Below, piece after piece: positions 5,352 to 56,715 of a DNA stretch of 64,000 bases. A program made the position numbers and the translations under genes. Origin of the DNA: Patescibacteria group bacterium (GTDB lineage Bacteria > Patescibacteriota > JABMPQ01 > JAQVVF01); contig JBAZSC010000001.1 in NCBI GenBank assembly GCA_041662665.1, positions 449,511 to 513,510 of the forward strand. Direction: 5' to 3'. The notes under the pieces were generated by a model that was given only the letters and a program-made list of their open reading frames with translations, searched no databases and was not told the DNA's origin. Numbering within the stretch: the stretch's first letter is position 1; each line of letters begins with the position of its first letter.

Positions 5352-5407
5352 ATTAACAATTAACAATTCTAAAGTTAAATGTTAACTGTTAAAAGTTAAT
5401 TGTTCAC

Positions 5408-8536: not shown

Positions 8537-8992
8537 ATGACACCATTTTACATTACAAAAGAAGGTCTAGAAGATTTGAAAAAACAATTAATAACATTAA
8601 AAAGCTCAAAAAGAAAAGAAGTTGCAGCTCGTCTTAAACGTGCTTTAGAACAAGGCGATTTATCTGAAAATGCAGAATATCAAGATGCCAAAGACGAACA
8701 AGCTTGGACAGAAGGAAAGATTGCAGAGCTTGATTCCAAAATTAAAAATGCTCAAATTATTTCTAAAGACAGAAATGGCAATATTTCTATTGGTTCACAA
8801 ATCAAGATAAAAAATGGCGGTCGCGCTTTAGAATACACAATTGTTGGTTCACAAGAAGCCAATCCAGCAGAAGGTAAGATTTCCAATGAATCACCAATCG
8901 GCATGGCATTTTTAGGCCACAAAAAAGGTGAGCGTGTTAAAGTTCAGACACCTGATGGATTTATCGAATATAAAATTTTGCAGGTTAGCTAG
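8537..8992 (+). CDS. greA: Transcription elongation factor GreA
   Basis: TKEGLEDLKKQL..L...R.EVAARLKRALEQGDLSENAEYQDAK coiled-coil N-domain plus FKBP-like C-domain. 151 aa. Confidence 0.9.
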   Translation: MTPFYITKEGLEDLKKQLITLKSSKRKEVAARLKRALEQGDLSENAEYQDAKDEQAWTEGKIAELDSKIKNAQIISKDRNGNISIGSQIKIKNGGRALEYTIVGSQEANPAEGKISNESPIGMAFLGHKKGERVKVQTPDGFIEYKILQVS

Positions 8993-9195: not shown

Positions 9196-11271
9196 ATGCA
9201 AAGTGAACTTCGCCAAAATAGAATCAAAAAATTAGAAGAAATCAAAGCTTTAAACATTGATCCATATCCAGCATATGCAGAAAGAACAAATACATGTCAG
9301 GAAATCATTAACGATTTTGACAAGTTTAAAGACCAAAAAAATATTATAGTTGGTCGTATTTTTTTATTTCGTCCATTTGGCAAAGCAACATTTGCCCAAA
9401 TTGGCGATGAGACAGGAAGAATCCAAGTTTATTTTAAAGAAGAAAATTTAAAAAAGAATTATGATTTAGTCAGAAAATTAGATATTGGCGATTTTATTCA
9501 AGCCACTGGCACATTATTTTTAACTAAAACAAAAGAAAAAACTGTCCAAGTCAGCAATGTAAAATTATTAACAAAATCAATTCTGCCTCTTCCGGAAAAA
9601 TTTCATGGCTTGAAAAATGAAGAAGAGCGCTATCGCAAAAGATATTTAGATTTAATTTCGAATAAAAAAACTTTTGATTTATTCAAAAAAAGAACTCAAT
9701 TCGTAAATTCAATTCGAAGCTTTATGCAAGAATCAGGTTTTATGGAAGTTGAAACTCCGACATTAGAGCATATTCCAGGCGGTGCAGACGCAACTCCATT
9801 CGTTACTCATCATAATGCATTAGACATCGATTTGTATTTACGCATTTCACTTGAGCTTCACTTAAAAAGATTAATTGTCGGCGGCTATGAAAAGATTTTT
9901 GAAATTGGCAAAGTTTTTCGTAATGAAGGAATTTCGCCTCAACATTTACAAGAATTCACAATGATGGAATATTATTGGGCTTATGCAACTTGGAAGGATC
10001 TAATTGGTTTTACTGAAAATTTTTACACCAAAATTATTAATGACACTTTTGGAACATTAAAAATAAAATACAAAGATCAAATTTTGGATTTTACAACTCC
10101 ATGGAAACAATATGATTACATAGAATTAATAAAAGACAAAACTGGTATTGATTTAAACAAAGCAAATACTTTTGAAAAACTGATCGAAGAAATTAGAGCC
10201 AAAAAAATAGAAGTTGAAAATGTAATTGGCTATGGCAGATTAGTTGATAATCTTTACAAAAAAACAGTTAGACCAAGTTTAATTCAGCCATGCTTTTTAA
10301 TTAATCAGCCTGTTGCAATTTCTCCATTAGCCAAAAAGAATGAAAATAATCAAAATACAACACAGCGTTTGCAAGTTTTAATTGCAGGCAGTGAATTAGG
10401 TAACGGTTTTTCAGAATTAAACGATCCATTAGATCAAAGACAAAGATTCGAGCAACAAGCAAAATTACGTAAAGAAGGGGACACAGAAGCGCAAATGATG
10501 GATGAAGATTTTGTTGAAGCTTTGGAATATGGCATGCCTCCAACTGCTGGTTTTGGTGTTGGCATTGATCGTTTATTAGCCATTCTTACAAATTCAGAAA
10601 ATATTAGAGATGTAATTTTCTTTCCACTAATGCGTCCCGAAAAAAATAATTTAGAAGCAAAGTCCAAGCCTTCAAAATATTCAGAAGTTGAAGAAGTGAA
10701 ATCAATGGATTCAGTTATTGACCGCAAAACAGCTTGGGAGTTATTAAAGCAAAATGTTAAAACAGAAAATTTAATTAAGCATTGTTTGGCATCAGAGGCA
10801 ATCATGAAAGCTTTAGCCAAAAAATTAAATAAACCAGAACAAGCTTGGGGAATTACTGGTCTTGTTCATGATTTAGATTTTGATTATACAAAAGAAAAGC
10901 CAGAAAAACATGCTTTGATGACAGCCGATATTTTAAATGAATATGAGGTACCAGAAGATATGATTGATGCAATTAAATCGCATAATTATGAAAATACCGG
11001 CATCACCAAAAAAACAGATTTAGATTTTGCTTTGTCGGCATCAGAACAGCTTAGCGGTTTAATTGTTTCTGCCACTCTAGTCTTGCCAGACAAAAAATTG
11101 CAATCATTAAAACCAGAATCAGTTCTGAAAAAAATGAAAGAAAAATCTTTTGCTAGAAATATCAGCAGAGAAGATATTCAAGATGTAGAAAAATTAGGAA
11201 TTAATTTAGATGAATTTGTTGCTTTAGCTATCAAGTCAATGCAAGAAATCAATAATGATTTAGGATTATAA
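9196..11271 (+). CDS. lysS: Lysyl-tRNA synthetase (class II) fused to a C-terminal HD-domain phosphohydrolase, roughly residues 515-691
   Basis: N-terminal OB-fold anticodon-binding domain. Class II motifs FRNEG, GGAD and GFGVGIDRL. Beyond ~aa 500 there is an extra ~180-aa region with HD signature (HCLASEAIM...GLVHDLD...KSHNYE). Confidence 0.85.
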   Translation: MQSELRQNRIKKLEEIKALNIDPYPAYAERTNTCQEIINDFDKFKDQKNIIVGRIFLFRPFGKATFAQIGDETGRIQVYFKEENLKKNYDLVRKLDIGDFIQATGTLFLTKTKEKTVQVSNVKLLTKSILPLPEKFHGLKNEEERYRKRYLDLISNKKTFDLFKKRTQFVNSIRSFMQESGFMEVETPTLEHIPGGADATPFVTHHNALDIDLYLRISLELHLKRLIVGGYEKIFEIGKVFRNEGISPQHLQEFTMMEYYWAYATWKDLIGFTENFYTKIINDTFGTLKIKYKDQILDFTTPWKQYDYIELIKDKTGIDLNKANTFEKLIEEIRAKKIEVENVIGYGRLVDNLYKKTVRPSLIQPCFLINQPVAISPLAKKNENNQNTTQRLQVLIAGSELGNGFSELNDPLDQRQRFEQQAKLRKEGDTEAQMMDEDFVEALEYGMPPTAGFGVGIDRLLAILTNSENIRDVIFFPLMRPEKNNLEAKSKPSKYSEVEEVKSMDSVIDRKTAWELLKQNVKTENLIKHCLASEAIMKALAKKLNKPEQAWGITGLVHDLDFDYTKEKPEKHALMTADILNEYEVPEDMIDAIKSHNYENTGITKKTDLDFALSASEQLSGLIVSATLVLPDKKLQSLKPESVLKKMKEKSFARNISREDIQDVEKLGINLDEFVALAIKSMQEINNDLGL

Positions 11272-11291
11272 TTTTTTAAAACCAAAACATA

Positions 11292-11942
11292 ATGCCAAAT
11301 CCAGAACAACCACAACCAATTCAAGAAAATTTAGCTGATGTTAAAGAGCCTCAACAAAATAATGTTGAAGGTCTTGAAGTTGCTCATGGGGAAGAATTAG
11401 AAAATGTTGTTGATGCAGCAAATGCCTTAGCAGGAAAAATTGAACGAGATGAAAAAGTTACAAAAGGAGAAGTTTATGATTTGCGAGAAGCTTTGGGACA
11501 AGTTAAATTTGATATTGGTGGAGAAATGATGACAATAGAACAGATTAAGCAAATTCCAGATCTGAAAACAAATCTTCCAATATTTCAAGAAATTCAAGCC
11601 GGGAATCTTAAGAGAGTGACAATGCTTTCGTTCTTACCTAAAAATATTGCAGAATCATTGAGCCACCATCATGGTGATCTTTATCTTATCGGTCTTTCTT
11701 CCTTATCTGATGAAGCTGCAGAATCATTGAGCCATCATCAAGGCGATCTTGATCTAAGAAATCTTTCTTCTTTATCTGACGCATCCGCAGAATCATTAAG
11801 TCATCATAACGGTGTTCTTAGTCTCTCTTTCCTTTCTTCTTTGTCTGATAGAGCTGCAGAATCATTGAGCCATCATCAGGGAAATTTAATTACTTCACCA
11901 AAAATTCAAGAACAAATCGATAAATTTAAAACCAAAAAATAA
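11292..11942 (+). CDS. Array paralog P1: conserved acidic N-domain, four 24-aa LRR-like repeats (LSSLSDxAAESLSHHxGxLxL), KFKTKK C-tail
   Basis: Starts MPNPEQPQPIQENLADVKEPQQ. First member of a 9-gene head-to-tail array. The 5' ~230 nt are ~90% identical to P4 and P8. Confidence 0.8.
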   Translation: MPNPEQPQPIQENLADVKEPQQNNVEGLEVAHGEELENVVDAANALAGKIERDEKVTKGEVYDLREALGQVKFDIGGEMMTIEQIKQIPDLKTNLPIFQEIQAGNLKRVTMLSFLPKNIAESLSHHHGDLYLIGLSSLSDEAAESLSHHQGDLDLRNLSSLSDASAESLSHHNGVLSLSFLSSLSDRAAESLSHHQGNLITSPKIQEQIDKFKTKK

Positions 11943-12548
11943 ATGCCAAATCCAGAACAACCAATGCAAGAAAAAATAGCTGATGTTAAAGAACCTCAAC
12001 AAAAAGTTGAAGGTCTTGAAATTGCGAAAACAGAAGAATTAAAAAAAGTAGTTGCTGCAGCAAATGTTTTAGCAGAAAAAATTGAAAGAAATGAAAATGT
12101 CACAGCCGGAGATGTTTTAGATTTAAAAGAGGCTTTGGGACAAGTTAAATTTGATTTCTACGGAGATCCATTAACATCAGAAGAAATAAAAAAGATTCCG
12201 AATTTACAAAAAAATATCGAAGTTTATAAAGGGATTAAGGCGAAAAAATTTTTGACTGGAGATTTATCTATACTTACTTATCTACCAGTAAAAATTGCAG
12301 AAACTATTAAGCGAGATTTTAAAAGCTCAATGCTATTTCTAAATGGCCTCACTTCTTTATCTGAAGAAGCTGCTAACAATCTCAAGGATTGGTTGAATGA
12401 ATCAAATTTCAGGACTCTTAGTATTACTGGAATTACTTCATTATCGCCTAAAGTAATTCAAATTCTTGCTCAATTTAAAAGAGAGCCTGCTGTTTCTGAA
12501 GAAATTGGCAATCAAATTGATAAATATAGACGACAATCTTATTTATGA
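11943..12548 (+). CDS. Array paralog P2 (divergent C-terminus ...QIDKYRRQSYL)
   Basis: Same conserved N-domain (MPNPEQPMQEKIADVKEPQQ...KIERNENVTAGDVLDLKEALGQVKFD). Start codon directly abuts the P1 stop. Its stop overlaps the ATG of a ribL 5' remnant. Confidence 0.75.
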   Translation: MPNPEQPMQEKIADVKEPQQKVEGLEIAKTEELKKVVAAANVLAEKIERNENVTAGDVLDLKEALGQVKFDFYGDPLTSEEIKKIPNLQKNIEVYKGIKAKKFLTGDLSILTYLPVKIAETIKRDFKSSMLFLNGLTSLSEEAANNLKDWLNESNFRTLSITGITSLSPKVIQILAQFKREPAVSEEIGNQIDKYRRQSYL

Positions 12549-12663
12549 AAAAAATACTCATCTTCGGCACATTTGATCTCTTGCATCCAGGCCATCTTGA
12601 TTTTTTAAAAATAAATATTTATAAAAGATGCTACAGAAATTTAAATTTAAAACCAAAAAATAA
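12545..12663 (+). pseudogene. Remnant of the 5' end of the RibL-like nucleotidyltransferase gene, fused to a paralog 3'-tail/junction sequence
   Basis: ATGAAAAAAATACTCATCTTCGGCACATTTGATCTCTTGCATCCAGGCCATCTTGATTTTTT matches the first ~60 nt of the intact gene at 18674 (MKK.LIFGTFDLLHPGHLDF). It then switches to ...gaaatttaaatttaaaaccaaaaaataaATG, which is the array junction. Confidence 0.7.
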
Positions 12664-13410
12664 ATGCCACATCCAGAACAACCAATGCAAGAAAATTTAG
12701 CCGACATTAAAGAGCCTCAACAACAAAAAGCTGAAGGTCTTGAAATTGCAAAAACTCCAGAATCAGAAAGAGTTATTGAATCTGCAAATAATTTAGCTGG
12801 AAAAATTGAACGAGATGAAAAAGTTACAGCTGGAGAAGTTTACGATTTAAGAGAAACTTTGGGACAAATGAAATTTGATTTTTATGGCAATAATCTGACA
12901 ATCAAAGAAATTAGGCAAGATCCAAATATTCAAAAAAATATTGGAATATGGCAAGAAATAGAAAGTGGAAATTGGAGAAATCGTGAAAAGCTTACAATGC
13001 TTCCACCAAAAATAGCCAGAGCTTTTAAAAATGTACCTGGAGATGATGTTTATCTAAATAATCTTTCTTCGTTGCAACCAGAATCAGTCAAAGCAATAAA
13101 AGATTGGGAAAAGGTTAGATTTTTACATCTTGATGGGATATCAAATATTTCAAAAGATGTCGCAACAGCTTTAGCGGCCTGGCATGGAGAAAATTTACAT
13201 TTACGCGGGCTTACAACAATATCACAAGAGGAAGCTAAAGCATTAAAAGATTGGTCAGGAACAAGGTTGTATCTTTCAGGACTCATTTCTATATCTGATG
13301 AAGCTGCAGAAGAACTTAAAAAATTTAGTGGTTTTATAGATTGTCCAGATGAAATTCAAAAACAGATTTATGGAATTAGTTTAGTTAGAAGAAGAATTCC
13401 AATGAGATAA
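12664..13410 (+). CDS. Array paralog P3 (MPHPEQ... variant, divergent C-terminus)
   Basis: Conserved N-domain with the TPESERVIESANNLAGKIERDEKVT variant, shared with P6/P7. LRR-like repeats follow. Confidence 0.75.
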   Translation: MPHPEQPMQENLADIKEPQQQKAEGLEIAKTPESERVIESANNLAGKIERDEKVTAGEVYDLRETLGQMKFDFYGNNLTIKEIRQDPNIQKNIGIWQEIESGNWRNREKLTMLPPKIARAFKNVPGDDVYLNNLSSLQPESVKAIKDWEKVRFLHLDGISNISKDVATALAAWHGENLHLRGLTTISQEEAKALKDWSGTRLYLSGLISISDEAAEELKKFSGFIDCPDEIQKQIYGISLVRRRIPMR

Positions 13411-13443
13411 AAAAGATTTATTAAAAATTTCTCAAATCTTAAT

Positions 13444-13561
13444 ATGAAAAAAGTTTTAATTTTCGGTACATTTGATCTCTTGCATCCAGGCCATCTTGAT
13501 TTTTTAAAAATAAATATTTATAAAAGATGCTACAGAAATTTAAATTTAAAACCAAAACATA
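13444..13561 (+). pseudogene. Second remnant of the RibL-like gene 5' end plus junction sequence
   Basis: Near-identical to 12545-12663 (atgaaaaaagttttaattttcggtacatttgatctcttgcatccaggccatcttgattttttaaaaataaatatttataaaagatgctacagaaatttaaatttaaaaccaaaacataATG). Confidence 0.7.
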
Positions 13562-14311
13562 ATGCCAAATCCAGAACAACCACAACCAATTCAAGAAAAT
13601 TTAGCTGACGTCAAAGAACCTCAACAAAATAATGTAGAAGGTCTTGAAGTTGCTCATGGGGAAGAATTAGAAAATGTTGTTGATGCAGCAAATGCTTTAG
13701 CAGAAAAAATTGAAAGAGATGAAAAGGTTACAGAAGGAGAAGTTTATGATTTGCGAGAAGCTTTGGGACAAATGGAATTTAATTATGGTGGAGATTCAAT
13801 GTCTATCACTGAAATTCAGAAAATTAAAGATTGGAAGAAAAATCTTGAAATCCTAAAAGAAATTAACGCCGGTAGCTTTAAGCATATTAGAGAGCTTACT
13901 TTTTTGACTGTCTCAGCTGCAGACGCTATAAGAAAAAAACGAGATGTAGATTTTTTGATAGGAGATTCAACCATACCTTTTGATAGTCTTGCTTCACTTT
14001 CTGATAGAGCCGCAGAATTGCTAAGTCATTGCAAATTGTCAAATTTACGCTTTGACAAGATAACCTCTTTATCTGATCAAGCTATTGAACATTTATCAAA
14101 TTTTTTTGGAGAACTTTATCTCAAAGGTCTTACTTCTTTGTCTGATAATGCTGCAGCTTCATTATCTAAATCTGAATGTTTAGTTCTTGCGCTTGATGGT
14201 TTAACTTCTTTGTCTGACAAAGCTGCAGAATCACTCGCTGAATATAAGGGTCAATTAGCAATAAAAAAAGAATTCAGACTGAAAATCAATCAATTTAAAA
14301 CCAAAAAATAA
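13562..14311 (+). CDS. Array paralog P4
   Basis: 5' end near-identical to P1 and P8. Has LRR-like repeats (LTSLSD.AAESL) and a ...NQFKTKK tail. Confidence 0.8.
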   Translation: MPNPEQPQPIQENLADVKEPQQNNVEGLEVAHGEELENVVDAANALAEKIERDEKVTEGEVYDLREALGQMEFNYGGDSMSITEIQKIKDWKKNLEILKEINAGSFKHIRELTFLTVSAADAIRKKRDVDFLIGDSTIPFDSLASLSDRAAELLSHCKLSNLRFDKITSLSDQAIEHLSNFFGELYLKGLTSLSDNAAASLSKSECLVLALDGLTSLSDKAAESLAEYKGQLAIKKEFRLKINQFKTKK

Positions 14312-14312
14312 T

Positions 14313-15173
14313 ATGCCAAATCCAGAACAATCGCAACCAATGCAAGAAAATGTAGCAGATGTTATAGAGCCCAAACAAAATACTGAGCCAAATATTGAAA
14401 TTGCCCAAACGCCAGAATTAGAAAACGTTGTTGACACAGCCAACGTTTTAGCAGAAAAAATTGAAGGAGATGAAAAAGTTACAGAAGGAGATGTTTATGA
14501 TTTGCGAGAAGCTCTGGGACAAATGAAATTTGATATTGGCGGAAAAATGATGACCGCAAATGAGCTCAGAGAAAATCCAGAATTACTAGCAAATTATAGG
14601 ATTTTGCAAGAAATGAAAAAAGGTAATTTTTCTAATATTCAAAATCTAACTAATCTTTCTTCTGAAACAGCAGAATTTCTTGTAAAACAAGGATTTAAGG
14701 TTGGAAATATATTAGACTTTAGAAAAATAAAAAAATTATCTTTAGATTCATTGAGAATTTTATCGAAATGGGAAGGAACTGCAATTGATTTTAGCGGATT
14801 AACTGATATGCCAAAAGAATTAGCTCGAATTTTGAAAGATTTTAAAGACGTTAGAAATTTAGACTTTAATGGTCTAACTGATTTGCCAAGCGAATCAGCA
14901 GCTATTTTAAAAGACTGGAATGGAGATTGTCTCTCTTTTGATGGACTTGCAACAATATCAAGAAATACAGCAAAAGAACTAAGCAAATGGAAAGGATTTT
15001 TTTTAGAGATAAGAGGAATCAAAACTCTTGATCAAGAAACAGCAAAAATTTTAGGAAAATGGGAGAGCACAAAACCCCGAGTACCATTATTTCCAAAAAT
15101 AGGTCATCGTACTTACTCAAGACGTTTCATCGAGGCTCCAATCAATATTTTAAATCAAATTCATGGAAGATAA
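14313..15173 (+). CDS. Array paralog P5 (divergent tail)
   Basis: Conserved N-domain. Repeats of type GLTDLPSESAAILKDWNGDxL. C-tail diverged from the KFKTKK consensus. Confidence 0.75.
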   Translation: MPNPEQSQPMQENVADVIEPKQNTEPNIEIAQTPELENVVDTANVLAEKIEGDEKVTEGDVYDLREALGQMKFDIGGKMMTANELRENPELLANYRILQEMKKGNFSNIQNLTNLSSETAEFLVKQGFKVGNILDFRKIKKLSLDSLRILSKWEGTAIDFSGLTDMPKELARILKDFKDVRNLDFNGLTDLPSESAAILKDWNGDCLSFDGLATISRNTAKELSKWKGFFLEIRGIKTLDQETAKILGKWESTKPRVPLFPKIGHRTYSRRFIEAPINILNQIHGR

Positions 15174-15178
15174 ATAAT

Positions 15179-15979
15179 ATGTCAAACCCAGAGCAACTAA
15201 TGCAAGAAAATTTAGCAGATGTCAAAGAACCTCAACAAAATGTTGAAGGTCTTGAAATTGCCAAAACACCTGAATCAGAAAAAGTTATTGAATCTGCAAA
15301 TAATTTAGCTGGAAAAATTGAACGAGATGAAAAGGTTACAGAAGGAGAAGTTGATGATTTGCGAGAAGCATTGGGACAAATGAAATTTGATATCAATGGA
15401 GAAATGATGACCATAGAACAGATTAAAGAAAATCCAGAAATGAAAATAAATTTCAAAATATTTCAAGAAATTCAATCTGGAGATCTACAAAGAAAATATA
15501 ATGTCGGACTTACGTTAGGGATTACATTTCTTCCTAAAAATATTGCTGAAGTGTTGAGCCATTATAATGGAACGCTTAACTTTCACAGACTTTCATTCAT
15601 ATCGGATTCAGCCGCAGAAGCATTGAGCCATCATAAAGGCACTCTTCATCTTAATAAACTTTCCTCTTTATCCGATAAAGCAGCGGAGTCATTGAGTCGT
15701 CATCAAGGATTTTTTCTCTATCTTATTGGGCTGTCTTCCTTATCTGATAAATCTATAGAATCATTGAGCCATTATCATGGTGGGCTTTTTCTCAGTGGTC
15801 TTTCTACTTTATCGGACAATGCCGCAGAATCATTGAGTCATCATCAAGAAAGTATTTATCTTGAAGGTCTTTCTTCTATATCTGATGCTGCCGCAGAATC
15901 ATTAAGCCATCACGACAAGTATTTAGGTGTCTCGCCAAAAATTCAAGAACAAATCAATAAATTTAAAACCAAAAAATAA
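15179..15979 (+). CDS. Array paralog P6 (MSNPEQ... start; first in-frame ATG of ORF 15059..15979)
   Basis: ATG at 15179 sits 5 nt after the P5 stop. Five LSSLSD.AAESLSHHxG repeats. ...INKFKTKK tail. Confidence 0.75.
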   Translation: MSNPEQLMQENLADVKEPQQNVEGLEIAKTPESEKVIESANNLAGKIERDEKVTEGEVDDLREALGQMKFDINGEMMTIEQIKENPEMKINFKIFQEIQSGDLQRKYNVGLTLGITFLPKNIAEVLSHYNGTLNFHRLSFISDSAAEALSHHKGTLHLNKLSSLSDKAAESLSRHQGFFLYLIGLSSLSDKSIESLSHYHGGLFLSGLSTLSDNAAESLSHHQESIYLEGLSSISDAAAESLSHHDKYLGVSPKIQEQINKFKTKK

Positions 15980-15980
15980 T

Positions 15981-16628
15981 ATGCCAAATCCAGAACAACC
16001 AATGAAAGAAAATATAGCCGACATTAAAGAGCCTCAACAACATAATGTTGAAGGTCTTGAAATCGCAAAAACACCTGAATCAGAAAGAGTAATTGAATCT
16101 GCAAACAATTTAGCAGGAAAAATTGAACGAGATGAAAAAGTTGCAGCTGGAGAAGTTTATGATTTGCGAGAAGCATTAGGACAAATGAAATTTGATGTTG
16201 GCGGAGAGATGATGACAAAAGAACAAATTAAGCAAATTCCTGATCTGCAAGAAAATCTAAAAATAATGAAAGAAATTAAAGCTAGAGATTGTCGTAGAGC
16301 AAAGCAACTTACATTTTTAACGCAAAAAACAATAGAAAATTTAGGCAAACTTGTTTATAATTTTCATTTAGACGGGATAACATTTTTGACTGATACTACC
16401 GCAGAATCATTAAGCCACCATCACGGAGATCTTTATCTGCTAAACCTCACTTCGTTATCTGACGCTGCTGCTGAATCATTGAGTCACCATCAAGCAGCAC
16501 TTTTTTTTAACAGACTATCTTCTTTATCTGATGCAGCTGCCGAGTCACTCAGTCGTCATTCAGGACTTCTTGGCCTCAATAACAGCAATCTCAAAAGACA
16601 GATAGATAAATTTAAAACCAAAAAATAA
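15981..16628 (+). CDS. Array paralog P7
   Basis: ATG at 15981 (residue 19 of track ORF 15927..16628), 1 nt after the P6 stop. ...IDKFKTKK tail. Confidence 0.75.
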   Translation: MPNPEQPMKENIADIKEPQQHNVEGLEIAKTPESERVIESANNLAGKIERDEKVAAGEVYDLREALGQMKFDVGGEMMTKEQIKQIPDLQENLKIMKEIKARDCRRAKQLTFLTQKTIENLGKLVYNFHLDGITFLTDTTAESLSHHHGDLYLLNLTSLSDAAAESLSHHQAALFFNRLSSLSDAAAESLSRHSGLLGLNNSNLKRQIDKFKTKK

Positions 16629-17474
16629 ATGCCAAATCCAGAACAACCACAACCAATTCAAGAAAATATAGCCGACGTTACAGAGCCTCAACAACAAAAT
16701 GTTGAAGGTCTTGAAGTTGCTCATGGGGAAGAATTAGAAAATGTTGTTGATGCAGCAAATGCTTTAGCAGAAAAAATTGAACGAGATGAAAAGGTTACAG
16801 AAGGAGAAGTTGATGATTTGCGAGAAGCTTTGGGACAAATGAAAATAGATGTTGGCGGAGAAATAATGACACTAGAAGAATTCAAAGGAACTTATCTTGA
16901 AATCTTAAAAGAAATCAAATCTGGAAATTTAACAAGAAGTAACGAGCTCCGCTTTTTGACTGATTCTGTTGCTACGACGTTGGAAAACAGTAGAGGTACA
17001 ATTTTTCTTAGTGGACTTACTTCATTGTCTGATTCAGCCGCTGAAATTTTAAGTCATCATCATTTTGATATTATTCTAAATGGCCTTACTTCTTTATCTG
17101 ATTCTGCTGCCGAGTCTTTTGGCCATCACCGTGGAAATCTTTTTCTTAGAGGTCTTACCTCTTTATCAGACAAAGCAGCTAAATCTCTGGGCCATCGCTA
17201 CGGAGATCTATACCTCGATAGTCTCAAAACTTTATCGGATTCTGCTGCTGAATCTTTGCGCCATCTTGATGGAAGCCTTTATCTTGATGGTCTTAGTACA
17301 TTATCGGATTCTGCTGCTGAATCGTTCAGCAATCAAAGCTGGCGAGTTTATTTTATGGGCTTAGTCTCATTGTCAGACCAGGCAATCGAATCATTAAGTC
17401 ATTTCAAAGGTAATTATCTTGGAGTTCCAGATAACATTAGTGATAAAATCAACAAATTTAAAACCAAAAAATAA
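16629..17474 (+). CDS. Array paralog P8 (six LRR-like repeats)
   Basis: ATG immediately follows the P7 TAA. 5' end near-identical to P1/P4. Confidence 0.8.
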   Translation: MPNPEQPQPIQENIADVTEPQQQNVEGLEVAHGEELENVVDAANALAEKIERDEKVTEGEVDDLREALGQMKIDVGGEIMTLEEFKGTYLEILKEIKSGNLTRSNELRFLTDSVATTLENSRGTIFLSGLTSLSDSAAEILSHHHFDIILNGLTSLSDSAAESFGHHRGNLFLRGLTSLSDKAAKSLGHRYGDLYLDSLKTLSDSAAESLRHLDGSLYLDGLSTLSDSAAESFSNQSWRVYFMGLVSLSDQAIESLSHFKGNYLGVPDNISDKINKFKTKK

Positions 17475-17475
17475 T

Positions 17476-18657
17476 ATGCCAAATCCAGAACAACCAATGC
17501 AAGAAAATTTAGCAGATGTCAAAGAACCTCAACAACAAAATGTTGAAGGTCTTGAAATTGCAAAAACTCCGGAATTAGAAAAAGTTGTTGACGCAGCCAA
17601 CGTTTTAGCAGGAAAAATTGAACGAGATGAAAAAGTTACAAAGGGAGAAGTTGATGATTTAAGGGAAGCTTTGGGGCAAATGAAATTAAATGTTGCAGGA
17701 ATCGAAATGACACTTGAAGAAGCAAAAACAAAAGGAAAATTCTACATTGAATTTCTGCAAGGAAAATTTGAACATCATTCAGAGTTAACAATTCTAACTC
17801 CAGAAATGGCACAAATAATCGCTGATAGTCACCGTTGGTTCAGCTTCCCAAAAGTTACAGAAATTTCAGACGAGACAGCGAACATTTTGGGTCGGCATGA
17901 CAGAGATTTAAATCTTTCGGGCTTAACCTCATTAACTGATAGCGCTGCTAGAGCACTTGCTAGACACAAGGGTAACATGAGTGCCTTAGGTTTATCTGGC
18001 TTAACCGAAATTTCTGATGAAGCTGCAAGATGGTGGGGAATGAACAGAAATAGCAGATTATTTTTTAACGGCGTAACAACTCTTTCTGGAGTTGCTGCAG
18101 CAAGATTATCAGCACATGAGTCTGATCTTTATTTGGAAAAATTAGTTGCTCTTCCCGAAGACGTTGCTGAAGGACTTGGTCGTTTTGGAGGCTATGAATA
18201 TAATACTCATATTTTAGATCTGTCTGGCGTTGAAGATCTTTCAGCTGAAAGCGCAAAAAATTTAGTTTCTAATCCCTATAAAAAAATTAATTTAGGACTA
18301 AAAAATATTTCTGATGAAGTTGCTGAACATCTAGGTAAATTAAAAGGTGATTTGCATCTTGAATCTCTGACCGAAATTTCATTAGAAGCTGCTGAGGGGC
18401 TATCTCATATTGAAGGTGCTTTAGTTTTATCAGGACTTACCTCAATATCGGATGATATAGCGAAAAAATTGGCAAAGGTTAAAGGCGCTCTAAATTTGCA
18501 GGGCTTAAAAGAGTTGACTCCAGATGTAGCATCAGCACTCGCAACACATACAGACGAAGATGTTTTGTGGTTGCCAAAACTTCCTGATACTCCAAAAGAA
18601 GTTGAAGAAATTCTTGCTGACAAAACAAAAAAAAGATTAGTTATGTGGTGGAAGTAG
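17476..18657 (+). CDS. Array paralog P9. The longest member, 393 aa, with ~10 regular 24-aa LRR-like repeats and no KFKTKK tail.
   Basis: ATG at 17476 (residue 20 of track ORF 17419..18657). Repeat consensus LxLxGLTxISDxAAxxLxxHxGxL. Confidence 0.8.
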   Translation: MPNPEQPMQENLADVKEPQQQNVEGLEIAKTPELEKVVDAANVLAGKIERDEKVTKGEVDDLREALGQMKLNVAGIEMTLEEAKTKGKFYIEFLQGKFEHHSELTILTPEMAQIIADSHRWFSFPKVTEISDETANILGRHDRDLNLSGLTSLTDSAARALARHKGNMSALGLSGLTEISDEAARWWGMNRNSRLFFNGVTTLSGVAAARLSAHESDLYLEKLVALPEDVAEGLGRFGGYEYNTHILDLSGVEDLSAESAKNLVSNPYKKINLGLKNISDEVAEHLGKLKGDLHLESLTEISLEAAEGLSHIEGALVLSGLTSISDDIAKKLAKVKGALNLQGLKELTPDVASALATHTDEDVLWLPKLPDTPKEVEEILADKTKKRLVMWWK

Positions 18658-18673
18658 CTTTAACAATAAATAT

Positions 18674-19081
18674 ATGAAAAAAGTTTTAATCTTCGGCACA
18701 TTTGATCTTTTGCATCCAGGCCATCTCGATTTTTTCAAGCAAGCAAAAAAACTAGGGGACTATCTTGAAGTTATTGTTGCTCGTGATCAAACAGTCAGCG
18801 CAATCAAAAAACATCGGACATTATTCAATGAAAAAGACAGATTAGCCAATGTCAAAAATCAAAAGATTGTTGATGAAGCAAAATTGGGAAATTTAGATGA
18901 TCCATACAAAATAGTAAAACAAGAAAAGCCAGATATTATTGCCTTAGGCTATGATCAAAAATCATATACAGAAGAATTAGAAGACAAAATCAAGGAATTC
19001 GGTTTTAAAACAAAAATCGTCAGATTAAAATCATTTAAACCAGAAAAATATAAATCATCGAAATTAAAATTAAATTTGTAA
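18674..19081 (+). CDS. Cytidylyltransferase-family nucleotidyltransferase, RibL-like FMN adenylyltransferase
   Basis: IFGTFDLLHPGHLDF (HxGH motif), VIVARDQTV and KPDIIALGYDQ align closely with archaeal RibL (AGTFDILHPGH...VIVARDETV...KPDIIVLGPDQ). 135 aa. Confidence 0.6.
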   Translation: MKKVLIFGTFDLLHPGHLDFFKQAKKLGDYLEVIVARDQTVSAIKKHRTLFNEKDRLANVKNQKIVDEAKLGNLDDPYKIVKQEKPDIIALGYDQKSYTEELEDKIKEFGFKTKIVRLKSFKPEKYKSSKLKLNL

Positions 19082-20786: not shown

Positions 20787-20895
20787 CTTAGTTACAGATT
20801 GACAATTTCGTGATTTTCTTATAACTTATAAGCAAACAGTTAACAGTTAACATTTTACAGTTAACAGTTAATTGTTAATAGTTAAGTGTTATTTT

Positions 20896-28002: not shown

Positions 28003-30858
28003 TTATATTTCGCGTCTTTTCTCCAGATTTCTAAAACTCGCTACATTTTGTTCAAAGAATAAATCAACAACTCCTGTTGGTCCATTTCTATGTTTTTTAA
28101 TATGAATTTCTGCAATATGTTTTCGATCTGTATCTTTTTTATAAACTTCTTCGCGATAAATAAACATAACAACATCAGCATCTTGTTCAATACTACCACT
28201 TTCTCTTAAATCTGACAATTGTGGTATCTGCGGAGTTCTATTTTCTACAGCACGAGACAACTGCGATAATGCCAGTACTGGCACATTGAGTTCGCGAGCA
28301 ATACCTTTTAGCGCTCTAGATATTTCTGAAACCTCTTGAACTCTGCTTTCTGTATTTCTTCCTTCCATCAACTGCAAATAATCAACAACCAAAAAACCTA
28401 ATCCATGTTCAGCATGCAATCTTCTTGCTTTTGTTCTGATTTCCATAATGTTTGAAGAAGGGGAGTCATCAATGAATAATGGCGCTTCTGATAAGACGCC
28501 CATTGCATGTCCAATTCTTGGAAAATCATCATCTTCTTCGCGATCAGAAAGTTTTCCAGTTCTCATTCTCCACAAATCAACATTCGCTTCAGAACATAAT
28601 ATTCTATCAACCAATTGTTCTTTTGACATTTCAAGACTGAATATGCCAACTGGAATCTTTTGCTTGGCAATATTTTTAGCAAAATCAAGAGCAAGAGATG
28701 TATTATGTACCAAAAAATCATTAGCGATAAAATTGTGCGTTGAATTTATTGATAAATCATAAACTTGTTTTTTGCCAATATATTTTATACTTTTTATTTT
28801 ATCCCAAACTATGTCGCTTTCAGCTAATTCTAAAAGCTTTTTTGATTTTAAAACTGTTGCTAATTTTTTAATAGTTTCTCTTCTTGGATTTCGTCTAAAA
28901 GCATGAATATTATGAGTTAACGGCAAATTTAATTTTTTATAAATTTCTTGCCATGTTTTTTTGCCTTTCGCTTTTTTGACTAAATGCCAAACCTCAATTG
29001 GCAGAGTATCATAAGTCCAGCCAGATGTTTTTTTATTTACGAATTTTTCTAATTTTGCAAGCTGTTTTTCTTTGCCAAAAATTCCAATTTCTTTTGCAAA
29101 TCTGCTAATATTTTCTTTATTCCTTATTTCTATTTCAAAAGCAGTTCTTACTTCATTATTATATTTAATTTTTTTAATTCTTAATTTGCTTATTATGCCA
29201 AATCTCAATAATAAATGTTGGATTTGTTTTATTAATTTTTCCGATATTGATGAATAGGATAATCCATAATTATTTTTGCCTAAATAAGCAGAGCCATCAC
29301 AAGAGAATAGGCGATTCAAAAATAATGCAACAAATTCTTTTTTTAAGCTAAATATAATCTCTGGTACGAACTTATTGCCAGCTGATTTACCCATTAGATC
29401 TAATTGTTTTAACCACTTAGTAACAGAATTACTATCTTCCAATTCATTACGCAACTTTTTAATTTGGTTTTGAGTTTTAAGCGGCAATTTTAAATAATCT
29501 AATATACTTTTTAAAGTTTCACATGTTGGCAACCAATGACCATTGATAATAGCTGAAAAACCCGCGTGGCTTAAACCAATACTTTTTTCAATATCCATTT
29601 GTTTTTGATTTGTTTTTATAACAAATGTTTTTAGCAATTCGCCAAACTTTTTTATTTTTTGCTTATCTTTAATTTTCGTACTAGAAACTCTAAAACTTGG
29701 AGTTCTTTTTCCGTTAAAATCAGATAACATAAATTTCACATTAGGAAATTTAGTAACTGAATTTTGAAAATCAGAAATTATCTTTTTATTATTGTTTGTA
29801 AAAATAGGGCAGTGTGTTGTTAAACCACCATCAGCAATAAAATAAGCAAGGCATTTAACTTTATGAGATTCAAGACTTTTTTTACCAAATATCGGAATGA
29901 CTCTAGGACGACCAATCCGCTGACCAGCTTTTAATTTTAATAATGGCTTCCATCCGTCAATTGTCAAAAAAGGATGCGTCAAAGTTGTCTTGATTTTATA
30001 TCCAAGCGCTGTTTCAATTTCATAAACTGGTTTTATATGATCATCCAAATAATTGCTAATTTCAGTTTTCTGTATTTTTAACTCATTATTTAGAGTCAAA
30101 ATATTTCTTAATTTTTCTTTGTATGCCTTTTCAATTGTTAACATACTGCCTGTTTCAGGATCAATTATTTCCGTATCTGCTGTAACGCATTTTCCCATAC
30201 TAGGTCTAGCAGCTAAAATAATCAAATCAGATCGCTGAAATCCAGCCAATACATTATCAAGATCTGGAAAGCCAGTTGGAATTCCACGCAATTTACTGCC
30301 ATCTCGATGCAATTCATCAATTCTCTCAAAAGCATCAGTTAAAACATCTTTAATAACAATAAAATTTTGTTTTAAATATTTTTGAGAAATGCCAAATAAT
30401 TTTTGTTCAGCTTCATCCAATAATTTTTCTATATCTTTTCCTTCTTGATAACCTAATCTTGAAATATCGCCAGCTGCAGTAATCAATTTTCTTAAGGTTG
30501 ATTTTCTCTGAACTATTTTAGCATAATGAATAATATTTCCAGCTGTTGGCACAATGTTTGCAAGAGAAACAAGATAGCTTCTTCCGCCAATTAAATCCAA
30601 ATGTCCTTTGTCAGTTAAAGAGTTCGCCAAACTTACCACATCAATTGGTTCTCTTTTTTCGTACAACTCAAGCATTGAAGAAAAAATCATGCTATTCTTT
30701 TCTTCATAAAAATCTTCAGACCGCAAAAAATCAGAGACTTTGATAATCGCATCTTTATCAATCAAAAGAGAGCCTAAAACAGATTTTTCAGCTTCTTTGT
30801 TTCTTGGTGGCAATTTTTCAACAACGTCGTTTTGGTTTTCCATGATATAACAATACAT
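28003..30858 (-). CDS. dnaB: Replicative DNA helicase DnaB interrupted by an in-frame intein (951-aa precursor, ~455-aa mature helicase)
   Basis: N-domain and linker, then Walker A split as ARPSMGK|C...HN|TSLALDF. C-terminal RecA-like domain carries helicase motifs H2-H4. Confidence 0.9.
28702..30189 (-). mobile_element. DnaB intein, ~496 aa, inserted in the P-loop. Contains a LAGLIDADG homing-endonuclease domain.
   Basis: Starts at Cys1 (CVTADTEI, block A). TLTHPF block B. Two LAGLIDADG motifs ([16 protein letters not shown]). Ends ...FLVHN before Thr+1. The flanks rejoin as GKT. Coordinates ±3 nt. Confidence 0.8.
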
Positions 30859-31666: not shown

Positions 31667-32080
31667 TTACCTTCCAAAGACATCTTCCCAGGGATTTGGA
31701 TCTACATAAAGAGCATAAACATAATCATCTTTGTCATAATCATGGCCAGTTTTAGACGTGCCCAAAAATTTACCATTACAAGTTATTTCATTCCATTTCT
31801 CTAGTGTCACCGTTTGAATAATTATTCCAGTAGTGCCTGGCGAAGCATCAGTTTTTTCTTTGCAATTAAGCTGAGCATCTTTTTTTCTCAGAACAATATA
31901 AACAACACCATCTGATGAAAATTTTTCAATCTTCCTAATATAACCGTCGAGACATAACACTGTGAACTCGAGTTCATTACCCGTAAGATCAGATATCCCA
32001 AGATGTCCAATCTTTTTTGCTAATTTGTTATAAAGAGCAAGCTTTTGACGCATTTCTTGAATTGGCGTCTTCGATCCCAT
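31667..32080 (-). CDS. Hypothetical small protein, 137 aa, GC-elevated cassette
   Basis: Same duplicated upstream block (TTGATA-N17-TATTAT promoter, ggccggaaaaccaggcc hairpin, AAGGAGG). Confidence 0.5.
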   Translation of the reverse strand: MGSKTPIQEMRQKLALYNKLAKKIGHLGISDLTGNELEFTVLCLDGYIRKIEKFSSDGVVYIVLRKKDAQLNCKEKTDASPGTTGIIIQTVTLEKWNEITCNGKFLGTSKTGHDYDKDDYVYALYVDPNPWEDVFGR

Positions 32081-34284: not shown

Positions 34285-34752
34285 CTAGGAAAACAGAAGA
34301 CTAAGCACAATGAAGATAATTATTGTTACGAGCGCAATAATCCAATGAAATGACGTTTCAAGATAAATAAAGAATAGATCATACTTCGTCAGTGGTGTCG
34401 TTTTCTTAGCTGCAAGGCAAAGTATCTGGAGTCCAAACATCAACGCAAAAAATACAATGATTAGGGTATTCAGCCAAGATGGTGAATTATAAAAATATGT
34501 TGCGGTCCGAGAGTGAAAAGAGACAGCTACTGTACAAACGCAAGAAATAAGAAATGCCATGGCAAGCTTGATATTAGTCGGAGAATGTGTTTCATAAAGC
34601 TGATCTACGCTTATTCTCTTACCAGCATTATAGTCAGCGAGAGCAGTCATCAGAGGTCTAACTTTTGATGCAATATATTTGTAGGTTAGAACAATTGCAA
34701 CTGTCATAGCAAGAAAAATAATAACTTCAAAAACAATTGTTCCTGTGCTCAT
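34285..34752 (-). CDS. Hypothetical 4-TM membrane protein
   Basis: Hydrophobic 155-aa ORF with RBS gggagga. GC-elevated. Confidence 0.45.
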   Translation of the reverse strand: MSTGTIVFEVIIFLAMTVAIVLTYKYIASKVRPLMTALADYNAGKRISVDQLYETHSPTNIKLAMAFLISCVCTVAVSFHSRTATYFYNSPSWLNTLIIVFFALMFGLQILCLAAKKTTPLTKYDLFFIYLETSFHWIIALVTIIIFIVLSLLFS

Positions 34753-41542: not shown

Positions 41543-42004
41543 ATGAACTTCATAGATAAAATCACTCAAAAATATCCAACAGTATATCAATTTTTTAAAT
41601 TTGTTGTTACTGGCGGTATAAATACTATTGTTGATTTTGGCGTTTTGAATATTTTAATTTTTTCGACTAGCAAATCATCTGGAATTTATTTTTCAGTTTT
41701 TAAAGGTATTTCATTTACTGTCGCAGTTATCAACAGTTATTTTTTCAACAGATTCTGGACATTCAAAGACCGTCAAGAAAAAAATCCAGCAGCTCAATTT
41801 GGTAAATTCATTTTAATTAGTGTTATTGGTTTTGGAGTTAATGTCGGAGTCGCATCTTTGATTGTAAACGTTATTGGCGCGCAATTTGGAATTACCGAAC
41901 ATCTATGGGCTAATATCGGTGCTCTTTTAGCAACTGCAGTCTCATGGATTTGGAATTTCACAGGTTATAAATTTTGGGCTTTCAAGAAAACAGTTAACAA
42001 TTAA
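41543..42004 (+). CDS. GtrA-family membrane protein
   Basis: FKFVVTGGINTIVDFGVLNIL... Four TM helices. 153 aa. Confidence 0.7.
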   Translation: MNFIDKITQKYPTVYQFFKFVVTGGINTIVDFGVLNILIFSTSKSSGIYFSVFKGISFTVAVINSYFFNRFWTFKDRQEKNPAAQFGKFILISVIGFGVNVGVASLIVNVIGAQFGITEHLWANIGALLATAVSWIWNFTGYKFWAFKKTVNN

Positions 42005-42028
42005 CTTTTAACAGTTAACAAACTAAAA

Positions 42029-42403: not shown

Positions 42404-42464
42404 TATTTAATAGTTAACATCAGTCAATTGTTAACTGTTAAATGTTAACTGTTAACTGTTAATT

Positions 42465-53017: not shown

Positions 53018-53383
53018 ATGGGACCAGGTGAAAAGCCGATCCATTTGCACGTTGCTGAATTAATCCGAGTTTGTGCCTGCAGATGCTCCAATTTAGCAGA
53101 AATTCCTGCCGAAGAAAAAATCCACTTGCCTCGAATTTTGCGACTGCTATGTTCAATCCTTGAAAATTCAAAGCTAAGTGAGATTGAAATACCAGAAATT
53201 GAGCATGAATTAGAAGGAGTAATCGGCATATACTGCAGAAAAGATGAGAGAATTAATCCTAATGATGAAGCAAATGTAAATGAAATCAGATTCGATGATT
53301 TTGATGCCCAAACGAGAATAACATTGTTAAGTCTAAAATTAGAACTGGAAAGAAAGCGTCAAGAATCAAAGAAATCAAGTTAG
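53018..53383 (+). CDS. Small-protein family member A, 121 aa
   Basis: Shares the RLLCSILE...EIEHELEGV core with B and D. Own terminator at 53396-53417. Confidence 0.55.
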   Translation: MGPGEKPIHLHVAELIRVCACRCSNLAEIPAEEKIHLPRILRLLCSILENSKLSEIEIPEIEHELEGVIGIYCRKDERINPNDEANVNEIRFDDFDAQTRITLLSLKLELERKRQESKKSS

Positions 53384-56364: not shown

Positions 56365-56715
56365 ATGGCTGAAGAAAGAGAAAGATTTGATCAATTGATT
56401 TGTAAGGCAATCAAAGATTCATTCCGTAAAGTATTTTTTAGTAATGAAGTCAGTGAAGAAAGAGTTGAGATTGCGCGTCAAACTTTAAGGGACCTATGCG
56501 AAATGCTGGAGACTGCAGCTTACAAGAAAGAGCACATTCAAGAAACTGTTGATTTCTTAAAGCATATCAGTTACGATCCTTATCGTCACGATGATTGGGC
56601 AAGAAGATGTTTGGATAGTTGTATTTATCGACTAAAGGCAAGAGTAAATGCTCCTGAAGAAAGCAAGGTGTTGCAACCAAACGATTTTCCAAAAGACAAG
56701 CCAGGAGATGAATAG
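56365..56715 (+). CDS. Small-protein family member B, 116 aa
   Basis: MAEERERFDQLICK...LRDLCEMLE...KEHIQETV...LDSCIYRLKARVNAPEE. RBS AGGAGG. Confidence 0.6.
   Translation: MAEERERFDQLICKAIKDSFRKVFFSNEVSEERVEIARQTLRDLCEMLETAAYKKEHIQETVDFLKHISYDPYRHDDWARRCLDSCIYRLKARVNAPEESKVLQPNDFPKDKPGDE

Follow-up and report, generated by a model that had tools for sequence, protein, structure and literature searches.

Organization of the paralog array

The DNA analyzed here, referred to as the window, is a 64,000-nucleotide (nt) stretch of a Patescibacteria metagenome-assembled genome (645-kb contig; NCBI locus tags WC663_02370 onward). It contains an array of nine co-directional paralogous genes, P1 to P9, at whose boundaries a stop/start sequence of approximately 40 nt, the junction, closes one gene and opens the next. 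The nature of this junction is assessed below from its copies in the window and from related loci in other sequences, which carry L numbers. The array, the two genes that flank it, and two gene fragments within it are located as follows.

11292-18657, plus strand: array of nine co-directional paralogs, P1 to P9
11292-11942, plus strand: P1
11943-12548, plus strand: P2
12664-13410, plus strand: P3
13562-14311, plus strand: P4
14313-15173, plus strand: P5
15179-15979, plus strand: P6
15981-16628, plus strand: P7
16629-17474, plus strand: P8
17476-18657, plus strand: P9
9196-11271, plus strand: lysS, encoding a class II Lys-tRNA synthetase extended at its C terminus and flanking the array on the 5' side (synteny in L014 to L016)
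18674-19081, plus strand: intact cytidylyltransferase-like gene (ribL-like; PF01467, 3.2e-20), which flanks the array on the 3' side and from which psi1 and psi2 derive
12545-12606, plus strand: psi1, 62 nt copied from the ribL-like 5' end, with an ATG that overlaps the P2 stop codon (ATGA)
13444-13505, plus strand: psi2, again 62 nt copied from the 5' end of the ribL-like gene

Each paralog encodes a disordered N terminus, an N-terminal domain (N-domain) of approximately 80 amino acids (aa), leucine-rich repeat (LRR)-like repeats of 23 to 24 aa, and a C-terminal cap helix. In the AlphaFold (AF2) model of P1, which has a predicted local distance difference test (pLDDT) score of 84.5, residues 1 to 26 are disordered and precede a small helical/hairpin domain, four strand-helix repeats of 23 to 24 residues, a cap helix (residues 203 to 210), and a coil formed by the terminal KFKTKK. 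LRR proteins are the top fold matches in Foldseek, at weak scores (E of 0.077 or worse). A Pfam search with all nine paralogs returned no family at threshold, the best match being LRR_8, in P4 only, at 14.9 bits versus a cutoff of 27. All nine copies are full open reading frames (ORFs) with an ATG and the common leader. Over N-domain codons 10 to 77, synonymous divergence (dS) equals 0.42 and the ratio of nonsynonymous to synonymous divergence (dN/dS) 0.37, which indicates that the paralogs are real genes under purifying selection. The family is uncharacterized and restricted to a few Patescibacteria.

Copies and spacing of the stop/start junction

The junction copies, labeled J0 to J8 in the order of the genes that they precede, are all on the plus strand.

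11272-11311, plus strand: J0, the untranslated leader TTTTTTAAAACCAAAACATA after the lysS stop codon, with the first 20 nt of P1
11922-11962, plus strand: J1, P1/P2 junction (KFKTKK-stop, 0 nt, MPNPEQP)
12643-12683, plus strand: J2, copy after psi1 and before P3, outside the tail reading frame of any paralog
13542-13581, plus strand: J3, copy after psi2 and before P4, sharing the ...AAAACATA-ATG variant with J0
14291-14332, plus strand: J4, P4/P5 junction (QFKTKK-stop, 1 nt)
15153-15199, plus strand: J5, diverged P5/P6 junction (..NQIHGR-stop, ATAAT ATGTCAAACCCAGAGCAACTA)
15959-16000, plus strand: J6, P6/P7 junction
16608-16648, plus strand: J7, P7/P8 junction
17454-17495, plus strand: J8, P8/P9 junction

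The original prediction, made from the window alone, had singled out the P1/P2 boundary (11920 to 11960) and proposed that its sequence is reused at nearly every other boundary. This reuse is confirmed. The tail 21-mer AAATTTAAAACCAAAAAATAA, searched with up to 3 mismatches, occurs seven times in the window (11922, 12643, 13542, 14291, 15959, 16608, and 17454), always on the plus strand and with at most 1 mismatch, compared to a shuffle expectation of 0.20. The start 20-mer ATGCCAAATCCAGAACAACC occurs eight times (11292, 11943, 12664, 13562, 14313, 15981, 16629, and 17476), with 0.01 expected. A core 13-mer, TTTAAAACCAAAA, is found exactly eight times in the 64-kb window, each time just upstream of a paralog ATG. 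The eighth of these copies, overlooked previously, lies at 11275 to 11287, in the untranslated 20-nt gap between the lysS stop codon and P1, where the last 17 nt of the junction before the ATG are present. A -10-like TATAAT (11267 to 11272) overlaps the lysS stop codon at this position.

The spacing of 0 to 2 nt claimed for the junctions can be narrowed. Stop and start codons are separated by 0 nt at P1/P2, psi1/P3, and P7/P8 (TAAATG) and by 1 nt at P4/P5, P6/P7, and P8/P9 (TAATATG), while a spacing of 2 nt never occurs; at psi2/P4 the sequence reads ...ACATAATG. The P5/P6 boundary has a spacing of 5 nt. It is a diverged homologue of the junction and not another sequence, as it has the length of a canonical copy with approximately 12 substitutions, and the region around it folds to -4.4 kcal/mol.

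The protein tail and the downstream leader

Homologous proteins encoded elsewhere end in ..VDKFKNKK, ..IKSFKK, ..IDQFKK, ..IDKFKK, ..INQFKSKK, ..INKFKVRK, ..IAKFKN, or ..IDEFKAKE directly before the stop codon, and in more distant repeat proteins the ending is ..VAKYR or ..VGKFRR. In other species, this ending is kept even where a spacer of 20 to 48 nt or a gene that is not a paralog follows. Compared in this way, ..Q-I-x-K-F-K.. reads as a C-terminal cap motif at the protein level, contrary to the earlier suggestion that KFKTKK is conserved for its nucleotides rather than for protein function. P2, P3, and P5, reported to have divergent C-terminal tails along with their loss of the junction, still retain recognizable versions of the cap (..QIDKYRR.. 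in P2), as does P9.

The residues following F-K behave differently. They vary across the family (TKK, NKK, SKK, VRK, AKE, or K) and are invariant in the array. The corresponding DNA, ACCAAAA[A/C]ATA[A], together with TTTAAA, is also found where no paralog tail can be encoded, namely, before P1, after both ribL fragments, and in L012, a single 1150-nt Logan contig. Because the leader also stands untranslated at these sites, the T-K-K-stop of the tails appears to be leader encoded, and the "KTKK-stop" codons are best read as the leader of the downstream gene into which the upstream ORF continues. The idea of nucleotide-level conservation of KFKTKK hence survives in part: the last ~17 nt before the ATG are carried independently of KFKTKK coding. 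In the arrangement that we propose, the 17 to 21 nt before each ATG would be the downstream gene's own leader, the array would lack spacers so that each upstream ORF runs into that leader, and the protein-level cap (..Q-I-x-K-F-K) would be finished by the leader-encoded T-K-K-stop.

These observations bear on the simplest alternative, in which protein-level constraint plus codon bias accounts for the junction and its nucleotide identity is a by-product of the narrow codon choice of an AT-rich genome. The cap motif and a PEQ..ENLAD[VI]KEP motif are indeed conserved across species, and most junction codons are heavily preferred ones, with AAA, TTT, CCA, GAA, and CAA dominating at 66 to 86%. However, the sequence is intact in three window copies and one L012 copy that are not translated as a tail, which largely refutes this explanation; in addition, the residues after F-K are invariant in the array, and every junction copy has ACC, a rare codon that makes up 5% of Thr codons. 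We regard protein constraint alone as highly improbable. For annotation, this means that identical C-terminal residues of arrayed paralogs can be leader encoded and need not represent a functionally selected peptide.

Concerted evolution of the 5' module

The nine units resemble one another in nucleotide sequence only from about -21 to +230 relative to the start codon, with a sharp drop on both sides. Informative sites within this block are strongly mosaic: all four gametes occur in 486 of the 1081 biallelic site pairs, a count to which recurrent mutation could contribute. The N terminus of P9 is closer to its array neighbors than to its ortholog in L014: the C-terminal 318 codons (76 to the end) are 90.6% identical to the ortholog at the amino acid level, versus 66.7% for codons 1 to 75, which are 72 to 84% identical to the paralogs in the window. 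Judged from these comparisons, the ~250-nt 5' module (-21 to +230) demonstrably evolves in concert, probably kept alike by gene conversion or unequal crossing-over. The module would comprise the last 17 to 21 nt before the ATG, the disordered N terminus, and the N-domain, common to all array members. On the simplest reading, each duplication unit would include a leader of ~20 to 30 nt, and the 5' module would be homogenized locally.

The junction is the upstream edge of this homogenized module. The "recombination hotspot" put forward in the original prediction is not shown; the junction is one edge of a 250-nt homogenized block. A related proposal would make it a dedicated recombination site that reassorts variable LRR bodies, in the manner of contingency or antigenic-variation loci. 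The mosaic N-modules agree with such a role, as do the near-identical 3' ends of P1 and P6, whose neighbors P2 and P7 are nevertheless dissimilar, the copy numbers of 0, 1, or 9 among relatives, and a TTTTTT/AAAA boundary that recurs at the lysS, L012, and ribL-fragment joins. Nonetheless, the nine complete ORFs with starts do not form a layout of silent cassettes and an expression site, and neither a recombinase nor inverted repeats were noticed beside the array. The sole population fragment recovered (L009) is identical to the window, and an identity tract of 40 nt is short for homologous recombination in comparison with the adjoining 230-nt module. A dedicated recombination site is therefore improbable.

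Related loci and history of the lysS-ribL interval

The interval between lysS and ribL (window positions 11272 to 18673) is hypervariable among related genomes. It holds no paralog in L015 and L016, where a Ham1-like inosine triphosphatase (ITPase) gene is present, one paralog in L012 and L014, and nine in the window. The array is thus a lineage-specific expansion at a locus that has 0 or 1 copy in relatives. A scan of a genome collection found one locus, L010, and a metagenome scan for the exact junction recovered one fragment (L009), which matches the window, with no strain variants in that thin sample.

In L012, a single P2-like paralog lies upstream of ribL, and the adjacent ribL gene is 92.6% identical at the amino acid level (dS of 0.62). 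The L012 leader and first 17 coding nt (ATAATTTTTTAAAACCAAAACATAATGCCAAATCCAGAACA) match those of P1 at 41 of 41 nt, and both flanks have diverged. In L014, the gene between lysS and ribL is the 394-aa P9 ortholog (genome-level lysS dS of 0.73). Its leader, ..ATATAATAATTTAAAAAG ATG, follows a 114-nt intergenic region and is unrelated to the junction. This lysS-paralog spacer (L014 positions 8692 to 8805) contains long G+C-rich inverted repeats (..cgcgtagccccgcaaatcttgtttgcgggcggtaggtgacaaacaagatttgtcacctacgcg..) that look like terminator or regulatory hairpins; the window has no counterpart, as P1 starts only 20 nt after lysS.

The genome of the window carries further family members. An array at the thrS locus has its own junction (..KFKVRK-stop, TAATG), conserved among its copies, and a third locus has its own T-rich leader of 30 nt. 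The family's other locus adjoins a divergently transcribed thrS gene (L001, 8049 to 13632; L010, 6483 to 14815; L013; and L007). In two other species, the thrS locus is linked to genes for a MoxR-like AAA_5 ATPase and for an approximately 660-aa protein that carries a conserved YTDPxLxTFCCAE motif; homologues of both partners were sought in the window, and neither was found.

The two "pseudogenes" described previously within the array are the 62-nt fragments psi1 and psi2 listed above, both copied from the start of the downstream cytidylyltransferase gene. As psi1 and psi2 have one breakpoint, GATTTTTT/AAAA, and one 41-nt filler in common, a segmental duplication of the array end is indicated. 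The ribL 5' end would have been joined illegitimately to a junction once, and homologous unequal crossing-over would later have amplified the product. This history would also account for the "array-end" tails of P2 and P3. Microhomology between the leader TTTAAA and the Phe-Lys codons of the cap may have allowed the seamless fusion of ORF and leader. The ribL 5' fragments keep their ATG and open plus-strand ORFs of 51 and 54 aa (12545 to 12700 and 13444 to 13608), which cross the start codons of P3 and P4 out of frame and end ~40 nt inside these genes. Their translation, should it occur, would disturb initiation at P3 and P4 or be coupled to it.

Translation start context and transcription signals

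No junction has a Shine-Dalgarno (SD) site, as stated in the original prediction. The conclusion drawn from it, that the junctions are special, does not follow, because genes in the window usually lack an SD site: 35 of the 40 other genes have none, a clear SD site is present at four, and one more has a weak AAGG. Leaders genome-wide are A-rich and G-depleted, and the junctions contain no G between -21 and -1. What sets the junctions apart is their predicted lack of structure. From -35 to +45, the predicted minimum free energy (MFE) is 0 to -1.6 kcal/mol in seven of the nine junction regions, compared to medians of -7.7 kcal/mol at 39 other starts and -10.5 kcal/mol in internal coding segments (Mann-Whitney p = 2e-5, which is overstated as the copies are not independent). 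Their close spacing is also unusual, as the 24 other co-directional gene pairs in the window are -1 to 278 nt apart, with one pair at or below 1 nt.

A consensus scan detected no plus-strand promoter or intergenic terminator signal between the paralogs, using a consensus that may not be that of the lineage, and the scan of the whole window showed no promoter excess. An Rfam search over the window returned only a tRNA and no RNA family at the junctions. In reporter experiments in Escherichia coli, the last 15 nt of an upstream gene suffice for termination-reinitiation, and a spacing of ~20 nt abolishes it (PMC10666635); reporters in E. coli and Haloferax indicate that reinitiation needs overlaps or very short distances (PMC10666635). 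Given that the block is G-free and predicted to be free of structure, with a spacing of 0 to 1 nt, termination-reinitiation on a polycistronic mRNA is a plausible mechanism for the junctions. Fusion of neighboring proteins by stop-codon readthrough or frameshifting was considered and rejected, as the frame relation is not conserved (0 or 1 nt) and nothing supports it.

On the minus strand, the block could be an antisense promoter (TTGGCA-N16-TAAATT) that, with terminators in the N-modules, would yield one antisense RNA per paralog. Promoter-like sites at 11298, 14319, 15987, and 17482 span four junctions, and terminator-like hairpins, consisting of CTTCAACATTTTGTTGTTGAGG plus a T-rich tail, occur in five N-modules (12012, 12736, 15248, 16053, and 17548). 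Yet the promoter-like count (29) equals its shuffle expectation (29.5), the sites match at 9 of 12 positions, and three junctions have a 15-nt spacing. Since both elements are explained by coding sequence (ATGCCAAAT and EPQQxNVEG), the hairpins and promoter-like sites are more likely its by-products, and it is extremely improbable that the block serves as an antisense promoter.

Constraint on the junction and its interpretation

Comparison of eight copies (P6 excluded) reveals no synonymous variant in the 12 conserved junction codons, versus 21 of 50 codons with variants in the adjacent domain (Fisher 0.005). At four-fold sites alone, the numbers are 0/4 and 16/24 (p = 0.024). From -21 to +13, a single informative substitution is present in 34 nt, compared to 64 in the next 220 nt (binomial 1.3e-4). 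Hence, the tail and first codons lack the synonymous drift by which the original prediction wished to tell the two kinds of constraint apart, although this pattern cannot separate selection from concerted evolution, as synonymous-site tests inside one genome are confounded by gene conversion. Between species, the untranslated leader is 100% identical over 20 to 24 nt at a dS of 0.62, and the neutral probability of no change in 20 nt is ~2e-5 to 3e-4. Selection on nucleotides beyond homogenization is suggested by these comparisons, but not proven.

The main idea of the original prediction was that the junction functions at the nucleotide level and is itself the target of purifying selection, with KFKTKK as a passenger. 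It would act as a sequence-specific initiation or reinitiation cassette and possibly as a promoter-proximal part in first-gene contexts. Besides the synonymous counts and the interspecies identity, this idea draws on the rare ACC codon in every copy, an identical 18-nt sequence at one junction of a third species (L010), the predicted disorder or coil of the termini encoded on either side, the extreme shortage of predicted structure in the block, and the -10-like TATAAT or CATAAT at which the conserved block begins in P1 and L012. Several of these points lose weight on inspection. The ACC codon shared with L010 was rejected as evidence of selection because thrS four-fold sites are ~50% identical between the genomes anyway; the fixed K, F, P, E, and Q codons mostly reflect strong codon bias; and concerted evolution, which is directly shown, would alone erase synonymous differences. 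Furthermore, the P9 ortholog, the thrS array, and the third locus use other leader or junction sequences, so that none is specifically required by the family, and P6 lost the junction with its ORF intact. Direct selection on the exact sequence is possible but, in our assessment, unlikely to be the main explanation.

A further variant would take the leader TTTAAAACCAAAA(A/C)ATA (17 to 20 nt) as a selected, portable element for SD-independent initiation or reinitiation in this Patescibacteria lineage. Its initial TTTAAA (Phe-Lys, with which the cap motif ends) would also provide the microhomology for fusing each new copy seamlessly to the preceding ORF, so that the leader would both express the array and seed its expansion. 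It has in its favor that this leader appears unchanged and untranslated between species at a dS of ~0.6. Nevertheless, we hold the variant to be distinctly doubtful. Genome-wide leader motifs (ACAAA and AAAAC) were rejected as an explanation of the conserved block, given their mild enrichment and the restriction of the exact 13-mer to the array.

We consider it fairly probable that the junction, which contains the leader, forms the edge of a 5' module evolving in concert and that it probably also serves SD-free coupled translation. It is neither primarily a conserved peptide nor a demonstrated special signal. The A-rich, G-free, structure-free block would probably be the translation-initiation region of each downstream gene, with initiation occurring mostly by termination-reinitiation on one polycistronic mRNA, and this use would add some purifying selection on top of homogenization.

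A number of observations weigh against this interpretation. Gene conversion relies on flanking homology and would be expected to act least where a homology block ends, but here the block is most uniform at just such an end; as the segment from -21 to +13 is the least polymorphic, homogenization alone may not be enough. The P5/P6 junction has drifted while the N-domain of P6 is typical and its ORF intact, and any selection on the exact junction sequence is therefore weak or dispensable; the drift caused no visible harm. The other leader and junction sequences at the remaining loci and in the P9 ortholog similarly weigh against sequence-specific constraint. Moreover, the cross-species identity of the leader depends on the single short L012 contig, co-transcription and reinitiation are inferred, and the trend toward unstructured starts is weak and not significant in the arrays of other species (p = 0.07).

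The array offers a clean natural example of a tandem gene family that grew to nine copies from one, each kept translatable, in a Patescibacteria genome that is reduced and poor in SD sites: a short leader travels with each unit, no spacer remains, and the upstream ORF terminates within that leader. Should coupling be confirmed, the locus would offer convenient access to SD-free reinitiation. Such junctions are ordinary products of tandem duplication and gene conversion, which are known mechanisms, and the general significance is modest.

Other features of the window

Heptamer-periodic TTAAC(T/A)G runs (TTAACTGTTAAC...) are present at 5352 to 5407, 20832 to 20885, 41986 to 42019, and 42406 to 42463, where they fill intergenic DNA just upstream of the genes starting at 5408, ~20872, 42029, and 42465. 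A 12-mer of these runs, searched with up to 2 mismatches, has 46 matches, compared to 10 +/- 3.6 expected. In this genome, the runs may represent a repeat with a regulatory or promoter-associated role.

Strong GGAGG-type SD sites occur only at four small ORFs (116 to 155 aa), which have no Pfam match.

31667-32080, minus strand: small ORF with GGAGG-type SD site
34285-34752, minus strand: small ORF with GGAGG-type SD site
53018-53383, plus strand: small ORF with GGAGG-type SD site
56365-56715, plus strand: small ORF with GGAGG-type SD site

All four have unusually G+C-rich upstream regions; in a genome otherwise poor in SD sites, they may be of foreign origin or under special regulation. Finally, the DnaB helicase gene (28003 to 30858, minus strand) contains an intein with a LAGLIDADG homing-endonuclease domain.

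Comparison with known systems

Tandem paralogs under concerted evolution are well known, e.g., duplicated tuf genes, rRNA operons, and surface-protein gene families. The P1 to P9 array shares with them a greater likeness among paralogs than among orthologs within the converted segment, mosaic sites, sharp boundaries, and a variable copy number. It differs in the homogenized part, which consists of the 5' module and ~20 nt of leader/tail, while the repeat bodies are divergent. SD-independent initiation on unstructured A-rich leaders is known from SD-poor lineages such as Bacteroidota. The array resembles these systems in its SD-poor genome, its A-rich, G-depleted leaders, and the absence of predicted structure around the start.

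As in described termination-reinitiation pairs (Huber et al. 2019, PMC6728339, and 2023, PMC10666635), the paralogs are co-directional, stop and start codons lie within 0 to 1 nt, there is no separate intergenic ribosome-binding site, and the last ~15 to 20 nt of the upstream gene probably form the downstream initiation region. The distances of 0 and 1 nt, and of 5 nt at P5/P6, all fall below the approximately 10 to 15 nt that characterize such pairs. In the known pairs, overlaps of -4 or -1 are the most common, and an SD site inside the upstream gene helps in the studied models. In contrast, the array has spacings of 0 or +1 nt and no SD site, and the coupled partners would be paralogs, not subunits of a known complex.

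At the protein level, the array products resemble FBXL/RNI-like LRR proteins in a predicted solenoid of 23- to 24-residue strand-helix repeats (L-S-S-L-S-D-x-A-A-E-x-L-S-x-H-x-G-x-L-x-L) with a C-terminal cap helix; they differ in that no Pfam LRR model reaches threshold and the N-terminal domain has no recognized relatives. Cassette-based antigenic- and phase-variation loci combine silent, promoterless, or truncated cassettes with one expression site, whereas the array described here consists of nine full ORFs with a dN/dS of 0.37.

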